Source: an uncultured virus (IMG/VR IMGVR_UViG_3300047315_000487)
Lineage: Duplodnaviria; Heunggongvirae; Uroviricota; Caudoviricetes
DNA: 20,000 bases
Virus record (IMG/VR): IMGVR_UViG_3300047315_000487
Direction: 5' to 3' (one strand)
Shown one piece after another: positions 7,127 to 12,139 of this stretch. Each line of letters begins with the position of its first letter. Within the stretch, counting starts at the first letter, position 1. Position numbers and translations under genes: made by a program. The notes below the pieces were generated by a model that searched no databases, was not told where the DNA came from, and worked only from the letters and a program-made list of their open reading frames with translations.

Positions 7127-7141
7127 TTGAGGAGACCCTTC

Positions 7142-7624
7142 ATGTGGCTTGATGACCACCGCACTGCCCTCTACCGCTTCTACGACGAGGGCGGTGCTTT
7201 GCTGTACGTCGGCATCACCGCGAACCTCGAGAGCCGTTGGCTCGACCATGAGCGCGAAAAGCCCTGGTGGCCGCAGGTCGTCGAGAAGACGGCGGAGTGG
7301 TTCGATAACCGCCCGGCCGCCGGTGCCGCCGAGCTGGAAGCGATCAAGACCGAGCACCCGGTCCACAACGTCAGCGGTACTCCGGCCGCCCATAAGCGCA
7401 GGGAACTCGCCCCCAATGAGGCTGGCCATGCCGCGCTCCGGTCGCAGCTCTCCGAGTACATCGGCCGGGCTCGATGGCGCGGCGAAGCCACAGTCATCGT
7501 GGATGGAACCCGGAAGCAGAAGCGCATCGCCGTCCTCGTCTCCATGGACTTTTACGAGCGCGCGCTCGCAGCCCTTGATGAGGTGCGCGTCCTGGTCGAG
7601 AAGGCCGAAGCCCCCGACGCCTGA
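7142..7624 (+). CDS. GIY-YIG nuclease domain fused to a Phd/YefM-like domain
   Basis: ALYRFYD...LLYVGIT...RW..H...E..AI..EHPVHN, then LRSQLSEYIGRARWRGEATVIV...IAVLVSMDFYE. GAGGAG RBS before ATG 7142. Confidence 0.82.
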   Translation: MWLDDHRTALYRFYDEGGALLYVGITANLESRWLDHEREKPWWPQVVEKTAEWFDNRPAAGAAELEAIKTEHPVHNVSGTPAAHKRRELAPNEAGHAALRSQLSEYIGRARWRGEATVIVDGTRKQKRIAVLVSMDFYERALAALDEVRVLVEKAEAPDA

Positions 7625-7677: not shown

Positions 7678-7956
7678 TCACCGAGCACCGTCCTCGTCGC
7701 CCGAGGCCCCGGCTATCGCGGCCCGTTCGGCGGCGCTCTTCCCGCCGAGGACCCCGGCTCTCCCGTTGGCGCCCGCGGTTCCTTCCTGCTCCAGTGCCCA
7801 GGTGAGGCAGCGCGCTTCGACCGGGCACCTTCCGCAGACGGTTTTCGCGGCGACGGCGCGGGTGGCCCACGACATGCCGGGGACGCGCTGGTCGCCGAAC
7901 AGCGGGATGTAGGCGGGGATCAGGCACAGGCCGGCGGCCTGCCAGTCGGCGGTCAT
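7678..7956 (-). CDS. WhiB-family (Wbl) Fe-S transcription regulator
   Basis: WQAAGLC...AKTVCGRCPVEARCLTWAL...GVLGG: four conserved Cys and the G[V/I]xGG turn. ATGA overlap. Confidence 0.92.
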   Translation of the reverse strand: MTADWQAAGLCLIPAYIPLFGDQRVPGMSWATRAVAAKTVCGRCPVEARCLTWALEQEGTAGANGRAGVLGGKSAAERAAIAGASGDEDGAR

Positions 7957-8519
7957 GCGGCACCTGCCTGGCGTGTGTGTTGTTGGGCTTCGCGTTGGCA
8001 GCCGGTGCAGTAGGCGGTGCCGTTGGCCTCGAGGCGTCCGTCGACGGCCTGGTCGTGCCCGCCCTTGCAGGCGGTGGGGCGTGCGCCCATGCCGGTGAGG
8101 TAGCGGAACTGTTCGCGGACGCGTTGCCGTTCGGCGGTGTCGTCGACGTGCTCGGGTGCGACGCATAGGGGGGTGTCGCAGTTGCGGCGGGCGGAGCCTT
8201 GGGGGTCGCGTCCAGTGCGTATGCGGAAGGCGATGCGGGTCGGCTCGTAGCTTTTGCGGCGCCACCAGAGGTCGGGTAGGCCGTCGGCGCCGAGGCTGCT
8301 GGTCCAGATGAGGTGGCCGCCATCAACGGGCTGGACGCGTGCTTCCCATGCCTGTTCGAGGGTGCGGGGCACTGTCAGGTGGATGGCGGGGAGGCCCATG
8401 CGGGTGCGGCGTTTGGTGACGCATGAGCGGGTGATGCCGAGGCGGGTGGAGATTGCCTTGTCGCTGAGCCTTTCGTTGAGGACGAGGCGGCGGATGGTGT
8501 CGTCGCGGGTTTCGGTCAT
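7953..8519 (-). CDS. HTH + degenerate HNH (His-Me finger) + C-terminal Zn-finger protein
   Basis: LSDKAISTRLGITRSCV HTH; HLIWT...RIAF...CDTPLCVAPEH; CKGGH...CTGC. Confidence 0.75.
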   Translation of the reverse strand: MTETRDDTIRRLVLNERLSDKAISTRLGITRSCVTKRRTRMGLPAIHLTVPRTLEQAWEARVQPVDGGHLIWTSSLGADGLPDLWWRRKSYEPTRIAFRIRTGRDPQGSARRNCDTPLCVAPEHVDDTAERQRVREQFRYLTGMGARPTACKGGHDQAVDGRLEANGTAYCTGCQREAQQHTRQAGAA

Positions 8520-8932
8520 GCCGCCACCTCGAGGGCTTCGGCGATGGCTTGCTGCCACTGCTTTTCGGCGGTCTTGGCGGCCTGCAGGTGGCTGATGCAC
8601 AGGCCGCGGCCTCCCTTGGCTTTGCGGCAGCCGTCGGTGGTGCACAGGTCTTTGTCGGGGAGGAGTCCGGCGTCGGCTTGCCATTCGCGGATGAGGCGTT
8701 CGTAGAGTCCGAGGTGGGTGGAGATGGCTTTGCGGGCCCAGCCGGCGCGGGTCATGTAGGTGACGGCGGCGCGGAGTTCGGTGTCGGTGAGGGTGGGGAT
8801 GGGGGTGTCGCCGGTGACGGCGCGTTCGATGGCGTTCCAGTCGATGCCGTCTGTGTAGGTTTCGGTGGTGGGTGGTACGAAGACGGGGCGCTGGCCGCGG
8901 CAGATGGTGGCTTGGATGAACTCGGTGCTCAC
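8516..8932 (-). CDS. HTH protein with C-terminal CxxxxC...CxxH Zn motif
   Basis: GWARKAISTHLGLYERLIREW; CTTDGC...GRGLCISH. GTGA overlap. Confidence 0.75.
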   Translation of the reverse strand: MSTEFIQATICRGQRPVFVPPTTETYTDGIDWNAIERAVTGDTPIPTLTDTELRAAVTYMTRAGWARKAISTHLGLYERLIREWQADAGLLPDKDLCTTDGCRKAKGGRGLCISHLQAAKTAEKQWQQAIAEALEVAA

Positions 8933-9264
8933 CGCGGGTCCTCCTCGCCGATGTAGTCGTAGGCGGGCATCGCCCACAGCAGCTCGCACAGGTCGAGGCG
9001 TTCGGCTGCGTCGATGTGCGCGTAGAGGGCGGCCTGCGCCTCGAGGTCGACCGGCCACCCGTCTCCGCCGCCGGCGTTGTCCGCCCACGGCGCCCCGTTC
9101 TCCTCGGCGTCGATCGCGGCGGCTTCGGCCCGCATGTCGCGCGGGTCGCTGGTTCCGAGCCACACGCCGGCGGCGTGGCAGTCGACGCCCGGGGCGGTGA
9201 GGTGCCAGGGGCTGGAGCAGAACCAGGCGAGGAAGCAGACGGCGGCCCAGACGTAGTCGCTCAC
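8929..9264 (-). CDS. Hypothetical protein with hydrophobic N-terminus
   Basis: GTG at 9264 overlaps the stop of the displaced MTase 3' end; GGAGG RBS. Confidence 0.68.
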   Translation of the reverse strand: MSDYVWAAVCFLAWFCSSPWHLTAPGVDCHAAGVWLGTSDPRDMRAEAAAIDAEENGAPWADNAGGGDGWPVDLEAQAALYAHIDAAERLDLCELLWAMPAYDYIGEEDPR

Positions 9265-9464
9265 AGCGCCTCCAAGGTCAGGTTCGACAGGCGGCGGGCA
9301 GCGGCTTCGGCGTACCGCTCGTTGGCCTCGACGCCGATCGCCCGGCGGCCGCACTGGCGGGCGGCGTCCAACGTGCTGCCGGATCCGGCGAAGGGGTCGA
9401 GGACGAGGCCGCCGGGCGGGCAGGCGTAGCGGATCAGCGGGTCGAGGATCCCGAGCGGCTTCTC
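9261..9464 (-). pseudogene. Displaced second copy of the DNA methyltransferase 3' end (67 codons + stop)
   Basis: EKPLGILDPLIRYACPPGGLVLDPFAGSGST...IGVEANERY. 45/67 aa identical by hand count and gap-free against 10325-10528. No start codon of its own. Confidence 0.88.
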
Positions 9465-9475
9465 TCTAGCTCTAG

Positions 9476-9481
9476 TAGAAT
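9476..9481 (+). promoter_or_regulatory. Putative -10 box (TAGAAT) for a leaderless endonuclease transcript
   Basis: TAGAAT ends 7 nt before ATG 9489 and there is no SD sequence. This spacing is typical of actinobacterial leaderless genes. Confidence 0.55.
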
Positions 9482-9488
9482 GATCGCC

Positions 9489-10349
9489 ATGCCACCTCGC
9501 GGCGTCCGAAGCGGCGTCAACAAGCCCTGCCAAACCTGCGGTTCGACCTTCTACGTCACGGGCGCCCGAATAGACACGGCTCTCTTCTGCTCCCGCACCT
9601 GCAAGGGCGTAGCGTCTCGGCTGCTTCGAGACTGCGAGGCGTGCGGGAAGGAGATGTATCGGCGCGGGCCGGGAGGTAAGCGGTACTGCAGCCTGGCCTG
9701 TGCCGGACTTGGCCACCGAAGCGGTGGCGAAGTCAGTTGCGAGTCGTGTGGCAAGAACTTCTACGTCGAGGCGCATCGCCTGAGCCACGCCCGGTTCTGC
9801 AGCGTTGCCTGCCACGACGTCTGGCAGGGGCGAGCGAAGACCCGCCATGTCTGCAAGGTGTGCGATGAGGAGTTCCGGCTCTCGCCCTGTTTCGTCACCT
9901 ACCGCACGCCGATGTACTGCTCCGCCGACTGCCGCAATGCCGACCCAGAGCACAAGGCGCGACTGCTGGCCATGAACACGCTGCAGCAGGCCGAGCGCAT
10001 CACCCGCGCTGAGGCTGCGGGATACGCGCTCCTCGACCTGCTGGAAGTCGACTATCGGCCGCAGCAGATCTTCAAGGACAAGTTCACGCCGGACGCCACC
10101 GTCGAAGTCGCGCGCTTGGTCGTCCAGTTCGACGGCGACTACTGGCACGACCGGAAGGGCACGAGCATGGAGGCGAGGATCCGCCGCCGGGTGGCTCTGG
10201 ACCGCAGCCAGGATGCGTACATTCGGGCGTGCGGGTGGCGTGTGCTCCGACTCTGGGAGTCCGACCTGCATGGCGATCCGGAAGGATGCACTGAAAGGAT
10301 CGCCGCTGCGCTCGCGGATGAACATCACGAGACCTCCAGCATGAGCTGA
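9489..10349 (+). CDS. Four-Zn-finger + Vsr/DUF559 (PD-(D/E)XK-like) endonuclease, putative homing endonuclease (alternative start 9480)
   Basis: Four CxxC-x(n)-[FY]CSxxC repeats, then FTPDA...LVVQFDGDYWH...DRSQDAYIRACGWRVLRLWESD. Confidence 0.88.
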   Translation: MPPRGVRSGVNKPCQTCGSTFYVTGARIDTALFCSRTCKGVASRLLRDCEACGKEMYRRGPGGKRYCSLACAGLGHRSGGEVSCESCGKNFYVEAHRLSHARFCSVACHDVWQGRAKTRHVCKVCDEEFRLSPCFVTYRTPMYCSADCRNADPEHKARLLAMNTLQQAERITRAEAAGYALLDLLEVDYRPQQIFKDKFTPDATVEVARLVVQFDGDYWHDRKGTSMEARIRRRVALDRSQDAYIRACGWRVLRLWESDLHGDPEGCTERIAAALADEHHETSSMS

Positions 10350-11065
10350 GACAGCCACTGGGCAGCCAACTCGCAGTACTTCTCGTTGGCCTCGATCCCC
10401 ACGGCGCGGCGTCCGATCATGCGGGCAGCCATCAGCGTGGCCCCGCTCCCCGCAAAGGGATCCATGACCAATCCGCCTATGGGGCAGGCGTACTCGATCA
10501 GTGGCCGCAAGATTTCAGACGGCTTCTGGGTCGGATGCAGACCGCCGCGCACGGACTTGGCCTTGACGACCGACCGCACAAGCCGGGTGCCGTCGTCCTC
10601 GTAGGTCACGGCCTTGACTGACCCGGTGTGCGCCGCGCGGTCGTCGTAGCGGGCGCGGGCATGTTTGTCGGGTCCTACGTAGGCAACGCGGGGGGTGTCG
10701 TGGTGCACGGCCGACCAGTCGCCCCGGTACCAGTGGGTGGCGATCTCGTGGACGCGCTTGAAGCGGTCCGTTGCGAAGCCGGTGCCGTTCGCCTTCTCCC
10801 ATACCACGTCCTGGCTGAGCTTCCAGACGGCGAAGTCGGCGGCGCGGTCGAGGAACATGCGCATCGACCCGAAGCACCACATCGACCGGGCAACTGTGGC
10901 GGCGAGGGTGGGCCAGCCATCAGGCCACCGGTCCCACGCCAGCGACGTTTCCTGATACGGCGGGTCCGTGACGATGCAGTCAGCCTGCAGGCCGAGCGCG
11001 GGCAGGATCTCCCGCATGTCGCCGAGGTGCAGGGTGACCGTGTCGTCGGAGTAGTAGACGCTCAT
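10325..11065 (-). CDS. Orphan DNA amino-methyltransferase (N4-C/N6-A, beta class)
   Basis: LHLGD, VTDPPY (motif IV), VVWEK, HPTQKP, DPFAGSG (motif I). ATGA overlap at 11065. Confidence 0.94.
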   Translation of the reverse strand: MSVYYSDDTVTLHLGDMREILPALGLQADCIVTDPPYQETSLAWDRWPDGWPTLAATVARSMWCFGSMRMFLDRAADFAVWKLSQDVVWEKANGTGFATDRFKRVHEIATHWYRGDWSAVHHDTPRVAYVGPDKHARARYDDRAAHTGSVKAVTYEDDGTRLVRSVVKAKSVRGGLHPTQKPSEILRPLIEYACPIGGLVMDPFAGSGATLMAARMIGRRAVGIEANEKYCELAAQWLSQLMLEVS

Positions 11066-11433
11066 GCCGCATCCACCTCCGTCTGGTGGAACCTCTGCGC
11101 GGCCTCCCGGTGGCCCTTCGCGGTCAGCATCCAGACGGCGAGCCGGTGTCCGTGGGTGTTGTCGAGGGTGGAGGGGACGCCGTCGACGGGGACGCGGCGG
11201 ATGATTCCGGCGGCGCGGAGGCCGGTGATGGCGGCGCCGAGGTAGCCCTTGCCGAGTACGGGCAGCAGGTCGCGGATCTCGTTGGCAGTGAAGGTGTCGT
11301 GGCTGGAGCCGTATAGGAGGACGACCTGTCCGACGACGTACCGGTCCCATGCGGACCGCTTCACGATTTCGGCGAGGGTCTCGTCCCGGCGGGCGGCGGC
11401 CAGGCGCTCGGCGAAGTTGAGGCGGCGGGTCAC
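11062..11433 (-). CDS. Hypothetical phage protein (possible winged helix)
   Basis: FTANEIRDLLP...LGAAITGLRAAGII. GTGA overlap. Confidence 0.75.
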   Translation of the reverse strand: MTRRLNFAERLAAARRDETLAEIVKRSAWDRYVVGQVVLLYGSSHDTFTANEIRDLLPVLGKGYLGAAITGLRAAGIIRRVPVDGVPSTLDNTHGHRLAVWMLTAKGHREAAQRFHQTEVDAA

Positions 11434-12071
11434 TGGGCACCTCCGGCGGGGGCGAGCTGCAGCGCGCGGTCGTGCTGCGCGTTGAGTGCCATCACGGCGC
11501 TGATCGGTCGCGGGTCCTGTTCGGCGGCGGCGCGCAGGATTGGCATGCCGGAGTTGATCGAGGCGAGCACCTCGTCCCGGGTGGCGGCGCGGCCCTCGGC
11601 GAACCACAGGGTCTCGGCGGGCTCGCCGACGTCGAACAGACGATGGGCTGGCATCTGTTGCCAGGCGCGGGTGACCCAGACGAGGGCGACGCCGGGGTTG
11701 CGGCAGACCATGTCGCCATCCGGCTCGGATGCATCGTCGGGCAGGTTGCTGTCGCGGCGGCGCATGTTCGGGGTGGTGAGGAACGGGCAGGCGGTCGCGG
11801 CGTAGATGGCGCAGTCGCGGTGTGACGGGGGCTCCGAGCTGACCCGGTTGACGGCACACATGGGGCCGATGACGAATGCGACGTTCGCGCCGAGTCGGCC
11901 GCCGCACAGCCAGCACTGACCGAAGCGGACGGCGTCGTCCAGCTTGTTGAGGCCGACGACGCGGAAGTCGGGCTGGCCGTCGATCCAGGCCACGAACCAT
12001 GGCACGGGGTATCCGGCGGCATTCGTGGGCAGCTTGGCGATACGGGGCGGCGGGGTGGGTAGTGGGCGCAT
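11430..12071 (-). CDS. Conserved-looking Cys-rich phage hypothetical protein
   Basis: GYPVPWF...PDFR...CWLCG...GPMC...EPPSHRDCA.YA...CPFL. AAGGAG RBS. Confidence 0.82.
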   Translation of the reverse strand: MRPLPTPPPRIAKLPTNAAGYPVPWFVAWIDGQPDFRVVGLNKLDDAVRFGQCWLCGGRLGANVAFVIGPMCAVNRVSSEPPSHRDCAIYAATACPFLTTPNMRRRDSNLPDDASEPDGDMVCRNPGVALVWVTRAWQQMPAHRLFDVGEPAETLWFAEGRAATRDEVLASINSGMPILRAAAEQDPRPISAVMALNAQHDRALQLAPAGGAQ

Positions 12072-12139
12072 GGGATGCTCCTTGGGTCGGCCGGGGCCGC
12101 GGTGTTTCGGGCAGCGCGGCCACGGCGAAGCGGGTGGGG

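Follow-up and report, generated by a model that had tools for sequence, protein, structure and literature searches.

In a stretch of 20,000 nucleotides (nt) from an uncultured virus (IMG/VR record IMGVR_UViG_3300047315_000487), hereafter the window, a Streptomyces prophage gene for a DNA methyltransferase (MTase) was found with two versions of its 3' end, one fused to the gene in frame and one left downstream as an orphan end, and with an endonuclease gene on the opposite strand between them. We consider it probable, at roughly three chances in four, that positions 9465-10528 represent a foreign, splice-free homing cassette in this orphan (solitary) MTase gene, inserted exactly at HPT/xKP. The unit comprises 1,064 bp and lies between the HPT and the xKP codons; the MTase gene stays complete without splicing because a diverged 67-codon copy of its end is fused to it in frame. 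This reading is carried by the anatomy of the locus, by a foreign fused end and a native orphan end, by the fold of the enzyme, and by the recurrent use of the same site by relatives of the endonuclease.

Duplication of the MTase 3' End in the Window

The MTase open reading frame (ORF; 11065..10325, minus strand) encodes 246 amino acids (aa) and matched the Pfam family PF01555 (N6_N4_Mtase) over profile positions 2-220 of 221 with an E value of 2e-29; a motif scan located DPPY near its start, and HPTQKP and DPFAGSG near its end. The orphan end also matched PF01555, at positions 165-220 (E value of 2.6e-17). Both 3' ends measure 204 nt, and their DNA alignment runs without gaps from the xKP codon to the stop codon. 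BLASTP of the fused end against the orphan end returned 45 identities over 65 positions and no gaps (E value of 1e-29). Codon by codon, 24 were identical, 21 synonymous and 22 non-synonymous, which leaves 45 of the 67 residues identical. The fused copy reads HPT/QKP and the orphan end opens at EKP after unrelated sequence, both beginning directly after HPT. At its other side, the TGA of the orphan end shares bases with the GTG of the next minus-strand ORF (GTGA). The initial annotation of this DNA had described a duplicated MTase 3' end at these positions, enclosing an opposite-strand endonuclease gene, and translations, Pfam, BLASTP and the codon alignment agree with it; the GTGA coupling of the orphan end to the next gene, which it had also noted, was read directly in the sequence.

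Contigs from the Logan collection bridged the whole unit without any difference in two sequencing runs (X1, 9210-11028; X2, 9222-12085), which may include the sample of origin. Because these contigs span both junctions, the duplicated layout is not a chimeric assembly.

The G+C content at third codon positions (GC3) was highest for the orphan end (95.5%), followed by the N-terminal part of the MTase gene (N-part; 89.9%), the fused end (83.6%) and the endonuclease gene (81.7%), and codons ending in A or T numbered 11 of 67 in the fused end versus three of 67 in the orphan end. The closeness of the fused end to the endonuclease gene in GC3 was counted toward a foreign origin of that end. The codon contrast between fused and orphan ends drawn in the initial annotation held in its direction, on a small sample of codons.

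Origin of the Two 3' Ends

An MTase search yielded 3,907 homologues, of which the best 119 were compared segment by segment; the query used for ranking was the fused protein, which biased the comparison against a native orphan end. The best homologues were uninterrupted Streptomyces proteins of about 247 aa. Mean identity to the best 119 was 76.6% for the N-part (residues 1-179), and for the C-terminus 77.1% when compared with the orphan end versus 64.9% with the fused end. The homologue's C-terminus was nearer to the orphan end in 113 of these 119 proteins and nearer to the fused end in five.

Among 401 sampled Streptomyces genomes, eight hold an MTase homologue (E value of 1e-60 or lower), and all eight alleles are uninterrupted. 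In six of them DNA homology to the orphan end starts exactly at position 9464, with 73-87% identity, and the gene with its fused end aligns to the eight at 67-76%. An uninterrupted 247-aa MTase, P0243, shares 66 of 67 residues with the orphan end, and its first 53 or so residues are nearly identical to the window's MTase, whereas the central parts of the two differ. Other proteins are 96% (P0244), 94% (P0190) and 92% (P0125) identical to the orphan end. Judged by these homologues, the orphan end is native and the fused end foreign, as had been proposed from the window alone, and the cassette-free alleles that this proposal called for were found in P0243 and in the eight Streptomyces homologues.

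P0124 also has an end of the fused type (93% identical, with 19 of 22 diagnostic positions), joined to an N-part that is only 75% identical. Three further proteins (P0126, P0127 and P0130) are of the fused type from the QKP junction rightward, over varying lengths, and then of the orphan type; co-conversion tracts that begin at the site would give mosaics of this form. Some MTases of Streptomyces prophages switch C-terminus type part-way along.

Since the orphan end is as similar to its relatives as the N-part and contains no frameshift, its intact state suggests that the insertion in the window was a recent event. A search of viral contigs for the P0243 locus gave a best match of 70% identity. 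When the genes flanking the MTase were compared between the window and the fetched loci, only one locus (L201) shared the upstream gene (69%), and no empty allele of the same prophage with both flanks was obtained. One contig of a further run, X4, aligns to 9373-9464 and stops at 9464. Another, of run X1, joins 9448 to 10581, near the predicted junction of an empty allele, but with a depth of 3.6 and a shorter side of 26 letters it was too weak and was not used. Contigs of related genomes, from samples of the same kind, were also seen that skip the whole MTase region (joints 9232-11054 in X4 and 9263-12085 in X1), one of them with 20 other letters in its place, which suggests that some relatives of this prophage lack any MTase.

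A Zinc-Finger Endonuclease With a Vsr-Like Catalytic Domain

The endonuclease contains four CxxC...CxxxC zinc modules followed by a C-terminal Vsr-like/DUF559 nuclease domain. In Pfam it matched DUF559 over the curated cut-off (E value of 1e-5) and REase_MTES_1575 under the cut-off of that family (E value of 3.5e-6). A database search returned 163 homologues. In an alignment of 24 homologues the four CxxC...CxxxC pairs were invariant, as were E178, D205, the segment QFDGDYWH (216-223, including D218, D220 and H223), D241 and Q244-D245. EDxHD is the motif name for the catalytic acidic and histidine residues of such homing endonucleases, and the invariant residues listed here are candidates for them. 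The alignment profile matched Escherichia coli Vsr (1cw0) with an E value of 2e-5, pairing PDA with PDF and DGDYWH with HGCFWH; with 3r3p, the catalytic domain of I-Bth0305I, it gave no sequence-level match at an E value of 1 or lower. For an AlphaFold (AF2) model of the protein, with a mean predicted local distance difference test score of 86, the top Foldseek match was 3r3p (E value of 6e-5, target-normalised template modelling score of 0.85), followed by Vsr (1vsr, E value of 1.8e-4). According to this model the catalytic domain has a Vsr-like fold that is closest to I-Bth0305I. Pfam, the profile match and Foldseek thus all point to the enzyme type named in the initial annotation, a zinc-finger endonuclease of the Vsr-like/DUF559 class related to I-Bth0305I. 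Repeats in the DNA of the endonuclease gene, spaced 105-210 nt apart, mirror the zinc modules.

The closest relatives of the protein (P0005-P0007) are 66-77% identical to it, and the gene shows 67% DNA identity to genes of Mycobacterium phages. With tblastn, a homologue was detected in 17 phage records under 11 names, all of them Mycobacterium phages, and each time it lies beside a methylase annotation. The 401 Streptomyces genomes hold no close homologue and a single distant one (35%). In GenBank the endonuclease is unannotated in the phages Techage (L001 2495-3283) and Malithi (L003 2476-3264), where the gene call over the same bases is a "hypothetical protein" of the other strand; the annotation of phage Seagreen, "DNA endonuclease (vsr)", is correct.

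Relatives of the Endonuclease Occupy the Same MTase Site

Loci of 38 endonuclease homologues were collected and classified with an MTase profile of 154 sequences (P0001 and 153 locus ORFs), in which HPTxKP occupies positions 158-163. In 15 loci, 12 of them distinct, the MTase is split into an N-piece, which bears DPPY, and a C-piece, and the endonuclease gene lies antisense between the two. In three loci (L093, L095 and L099) the MTase is intact and the endonuclease follows it tail to tail, and tblastx detected no orphan end; one locus (L096) has the layout of the window with a decayed orphan end. The endonuclease stands upstream of the MTase on the same strand in one locus (L010); two loci gave weak MTase matches, and the remaining 16 had no MTase in the fetched flanks.

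Each of the 15 split loci has a C-piece that begins at profile position 159-162, and the orphan end of the window begins at 160/161, so relatives occupy the same junction in unrelated MTases. An occupied and an empty allele could be compared in the phages Techage and Mangethe, which have common synteny: in Techage 956 nt replace 24 nt directly before the (T)VKP codons. Seagreen is likewise an occupied phage, and Misha28 an empty one. Both results support insertion at HPT/xKP, as initially proposed. The initial annotation had further held that the site beside the cassette is recoded, and the codons just 3' of the site are indeed heavily changed in carriers versus empty alleles, in the mycobacteriophages as in the window.

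L096 encodes an intact MTase of 505 aa, whose site has diverged (HPTVKPVSLCQW), and an antisense endonuclease; the two genes overlap convergently by 25 nt, as in the window, and downstream follows a decayed orphan end beginning TVKPIDLMKW. This locus may represent a later, decayed state of the window's layout. At the loci with an intact MTase and no orphan end the overlap measures 83 nt (L093), 38 nt (L095) and 47 nt (L099).

None of 160 loci fetched with an MTase query contains the endonuclease. Because of this, and because no close homologue occurs in the 401 Streptomyces genomes, the endonuclease is a sporadic guest of otherwise solitary MTases. It had been predicted that homologues of the endonuclease would be consistently flanked by duplicated 3' ends, and this prediction failed. 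With 15 split loci, three loci without an orphan end and a single repeat of the layout among the 38, the spare 3' end is not constant in this endonuclease family but one outcome among several.

Split Relatives Carry a Conserved Mini-ORF

All eight distinct split loci examined contain a conserved cassette mini-ORF of 29-35 aa with the pattern MR[DE][FL]...YFEEV...AHPT followed by a stop codon (Table 1). Its last 18 or so residues are a diverged copy of the segment that precedes VKP in the empty allele, and its substitutions favour third codon positions (21 versus 10 and 9). From the mini-ORF stop to the xKP codon there are 2-4 nt, and in Techage and Malithi a Shine-Dalgarno sequence and a GTG start stand ahead of the C-piece. 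The split MTases thus consist of three pieces. A programmed frameshift joining the mini-ORF to the C-piece was considered and rejected, because the distance from stop to xKP varies between 2 and 4 nt. In Mycobacterium phage Glaske (L279 2361-2531) a split MTase and a cassette-type junction are kept, and about 702 nt of the endonuclease (Techage L001 2550-3251) are gone; by its sequence this locus looks like a degenerate stage of the element.

Table 1. Features of the MTase locus in the window, and the mini-ORF of split relatives
Feature	Position	Strand	Remarks
MTase 5' part, codons 1-179	10529..11065	-	DPPY at about 10966; ends in ...GGLHPT; resident part of the gene
Fused replacement (foreign) 3' end	10325..10528	-	67 codons and stop, in frame: QKPSEILRPLIEY...DPFAGSGAT...LEVS-stop
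Convergent overlap of MTase and endonuclease 3' ends	10325..10349		25 nt; ties the spare end to the endonuclease gene
Endonuclease gene	9480..10349	+	289 aa; alignments with relatives begin at the second ATG (9489)
Junction between endonuclease start codon and orphan end	9465..9479		15 nt; junctions of relatives were aligned with it
Orphan native 3' end	9261..9464	-	67 codons and stop, intact, without a start codon of its own
Next operon gene	8929..9264	-	its GTG overlaps the TGA of the orphan end
Mini-ORF of split relatives	L001 3283-3372 (Techage gp60); equivalents in L003, L004, L005, L007, L086, L088, L092		between endonuclease start and C-piece

The Junction and the Antisense Frame

On the minus strand, the 15-nt junction of the window holds two tandem copies of CTAGAG, of which the second extends into the first codon of the orphan end. 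Directly upstream of the tandem stands CAT TCT ACT, which resembles the HPT-coding remnant at the junctions of the split relatives; its CAT is the antisense of the endonuclease ATG. No convincing terminal inverted repeats of an element of the insertion-sequence type were found.

The minus strand of 9261-10358 contains a frame of 365 codons that is antisense to the endonuclease gene, open throughout and in the frame of the orphan end, at whose stop it ends; an upstream GTG in it overlaps the TGA of the fused MTase (GTGA). The absence of antisense stops is unremarkable at 66% G+C. In two homologues of low G+C content (L094, 28%; L097, 34%) the same antisense frame has no stops in 250 codons, and other low-G+C homologues have 9-14. 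A search with the 365-aa antisense ORF returned no gene calls spanning the antisense endonuclease and the orphan end, the matches being MTases that align to the orphan part only.

Proposed Mechanism and Alternative Explanations

If the unit is a homing cassette, the endonuclease would cut cassette-free MTase alleles at the conserved HPT/xKP-coding sequence, and the double-strand break would be repaired from a cassette-bearing genome, copying the spare end together with the endonuclease gene. The body of the MTase gene would serve as the upstream homology arm and the 3' end from xKP onward, that is, the orphan end, as the downstream arm. The recipient's own 3' end would then turn into the next orphan end, left downstream and untranslated. 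Carriers would escape cutting, since the fused copy has a recoded site and the orphan end only half of one. We infer cleavage at HPT/xKP because this one site is occupied repeatedly and exactly, and because of the fold of the enzyme; the position of the cut and the immunity of the recoded site are likewise proposed. Because the two genes overlap tail to tail (by 25 nt in the window and L096, and by 38-83 nt in L093, L095 and L099), the endonuclease gene would move only together with at least the last MTase codons. The spare end may have travelled with the gene repeatedly rather than once.

Several findings weigh against the cassette. The spare 3' end with an orphan end occurs in two loci only (the window and L096), compared with 15 split loci and three without an orphan end, and the 16 loci without an MTase in the fetched flanks indicate that the wider endonuclease family also has further targets. 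A simple assignment of native and foreign ends is weakened by the strong mosaicism of the MTase family, and the difference in codon bias is modest and drawn from a small sample. A scan of positions 9100-10700 for sigma-70-type promoters and terminators gave no matches, and thus none for a promoter of the endonuclease gene. Taken as a whole, the first reading of the locus is partly supported.

An unlikely alternative, which we place first among the rivals, is that the duplication is a one-off recombination scar and no transmissible design, left by a free-standing endonuclease that normally lies behind an intact MTase and need not cut the MTase gene. Either the endonuclease gene and the fused-type end would have come in by ordinary recombination between two MTase alleles with one illegitimate join, or the orphan end and the genes downstream of it would derive from another phage, again through one illegitimate join. 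The three loci with an endonuclease behind an intact MTase and no orphan end have just this normal layout, the high mosaicism of the MTase family fits such an account, and the CTAGAG tandem could trace microhomology joining; PMC10448857 reports nuclease genes at the borders of segments that phages have exchanged. A scar would, however, have had to break exactly where 15 relatives sit in unrelated MTases, L096 repeats the layout independently, and in homologues the N-part pairs with orphan-type ends, all of which speak for the cassette.

Vsr is a single-domain nickase paired with a C5-cytosine MTase (dcm-vsr). The endonuclease could be a functional partner of the MTase instead of a selfish gene, either the type II restriction enzyme of a convergent pair or a mismatch nickase of the Vsr type. 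The convergent layout, typical of restriction-modification pairs, the sub-threshold match to REase_MTES_1575 and the sequence similarity to Vsr are in keeping with this. We nonetheless regard a partner as improbable, since the endonuclease gene lies inside the MTase and disrupts it in 15 loci, and the two are not co-inherited: the endonuclease was found in none of the 160 loci fetched with the MTase query and in none of the eight Streptomyces MTase loci. Moreover, the MTase is of the N6/N4 type (PF01555) and not of the C5 type served by Vsr, and the array of four zinc modules has no counterpart in Vsr.

That the insert is spliced out as an intein or intron, or that the contig is chimeric, is highly improbable. 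In its favour, no stop interrupts the antisense frame over the endonuclease gene, and bioRxiv 10.1101/2025.01.02.630785 reports antisense Vsr-like nucleases embedded in complete actinophage inteins, in host proteins of four types to which methylases do not belong. Against it, the fused copy has a complete C-terminus and stop, the orphan end is in another frame than the MTase body, Rfam searches of the window and L001-L003 found no family at gathering thresholds, and contigs of two runs bridge both junctions.

Beyond the window, the homing cassette may belong to a wider pattern, which we put forward tentatively and at somewhat less than even odds. One zinc-finger/Vsr-like family would colonise HPT/xKP of N6/N4 MTases in actinophages and other viruses without splicing, by three interchangeable solutions: split pieces with a mini-ORF that resupplies HPT; a position tail to tail behind an intact, recoded MTase; or a spare 3' end, with the orphan end as the next downstream arm. 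The antisense GTGA-coupled frame may in addition keep the translational coupling of the operon.

Comparison With Known Systems

Mobile ORFs (mORFs) that supply a foreign C-terminus are known from fungal mitochondria, in atp6 of Allomyces macrogynus and in atp6, atp9, cox2 and nad3 of Glomus sp. (Beaudet et al. 2013, PMC3630166). There the endonuclease ORF lies near the 3' end of a conserved gene, the native C-terminus is kept downstream, and this native C-terminus clusters with relatives whereas the inserted one does not. The window shares with them the insertion in the 3' region, a complete chimeric MTase ORF, and a retained native C-terminus that is nearer to its relatives. It differs in that the enzyme is Vsr-like with zinc fingers and not of the LAGLIDADG or GIY-YIG type, in that the endonuclease gene runs antisense to the spare end, with their tails overlapping, and in that the host is a bacterial prophage and the target a DNA methyltransferase.

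The EDxHD/Vsr-like enzyme I-Bth0305I (PDB 3r3p) sits in a group I intron of a phage recA gene (Taylor et al. 2011, PMC3239194), and "fractured genes" use split inteins with a Vsr-like endonuclease between the pieces (Dassa et al. 2009, PMC2677866). Such endonucleases share with that of the window the Vsr-like fold, the location in phages and the use of conserved sites in conserved genes; the window differs by having neither intron nor intein, and its DNA-binding part is the CxxC...CxxxC array.

Two papers (Gosselin et al. 2023, PMC9957025; Arsenault et al. 2025, PMC11855218) report insertion elements in actinophage methylases, namely an intein, the ShiLan/HNH element and a LAGLIDADG domain. 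They treat the same mycobacteriophage methylase family (Glaske, KilKor, Willsammy and Kersh are named), and conserved insertion sites and a patchy distribution are in common with the present element; unlike it, those elements are in frame and at other sites. A term search of the two texts found no "Vsr", "DUF559", "antisense" or split C-terminus. Our literature search, which took in few subscription journals and no supplements, returned no phage or prophage case of a homing cassette with a spare 3' end.

The relatives of the endonuclease resemble another arrangement, in which a gene is broken into pieces by a free-standing homing endonuclease. For the nrdA/mobE genes-in-pieces of Aeromonas phage Aeh1, Friedrich 2007 is reportedly a source. 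The Aeh1 case (Crona et al. 2011, PMC3045599) compares well with the loci of Techage, Seagreen, Malithi, a Rarobacter prophage and viral contigs, where the endonuclease gene breaks the MTase into pieces that could each be translated, furnished with new tails, a Shine-Dalgarno sequence and a start codon. In the window, by contrast, the MTase is unsplit and kept whole by the spare end.

The usual view is that homing endonucleases of phages depend on introns, inteins or intergenic sites. If the proposed cassette is real, it would extend a mechanism of fungal mitochondria to bacterial viruses, with a spare gene end sparing the host gene, and it would help to account for the mosaic nature of phage methyltransferase genes. 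Annotators would gain a reason for orphan "methylase" fragments and for the "hypothetical proteins" called on the wrong strand in dozens of actinophage genomes. It would also provide a modular zinc-finger nuclease family with a defined natural target, testable in Techage and Mangethe, harmless phages that are cultured on M. smegmatis mc2155.

Neighboring Genes

In a megablast search of the whole window against phage records, the sole match comprised 59 nt, and a Pfam search with the next operon gene identified no family. Away from the MTase, an ORF on the plus strand, opposite to the operon (7127-7624), gave a borderline match to GIY-YIG (22.4 bits, against a cut-off of 22.6) and may be a second guest of the nuclease type. 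On the minus strand, positions 7678-7980 hold a WhiB gene.

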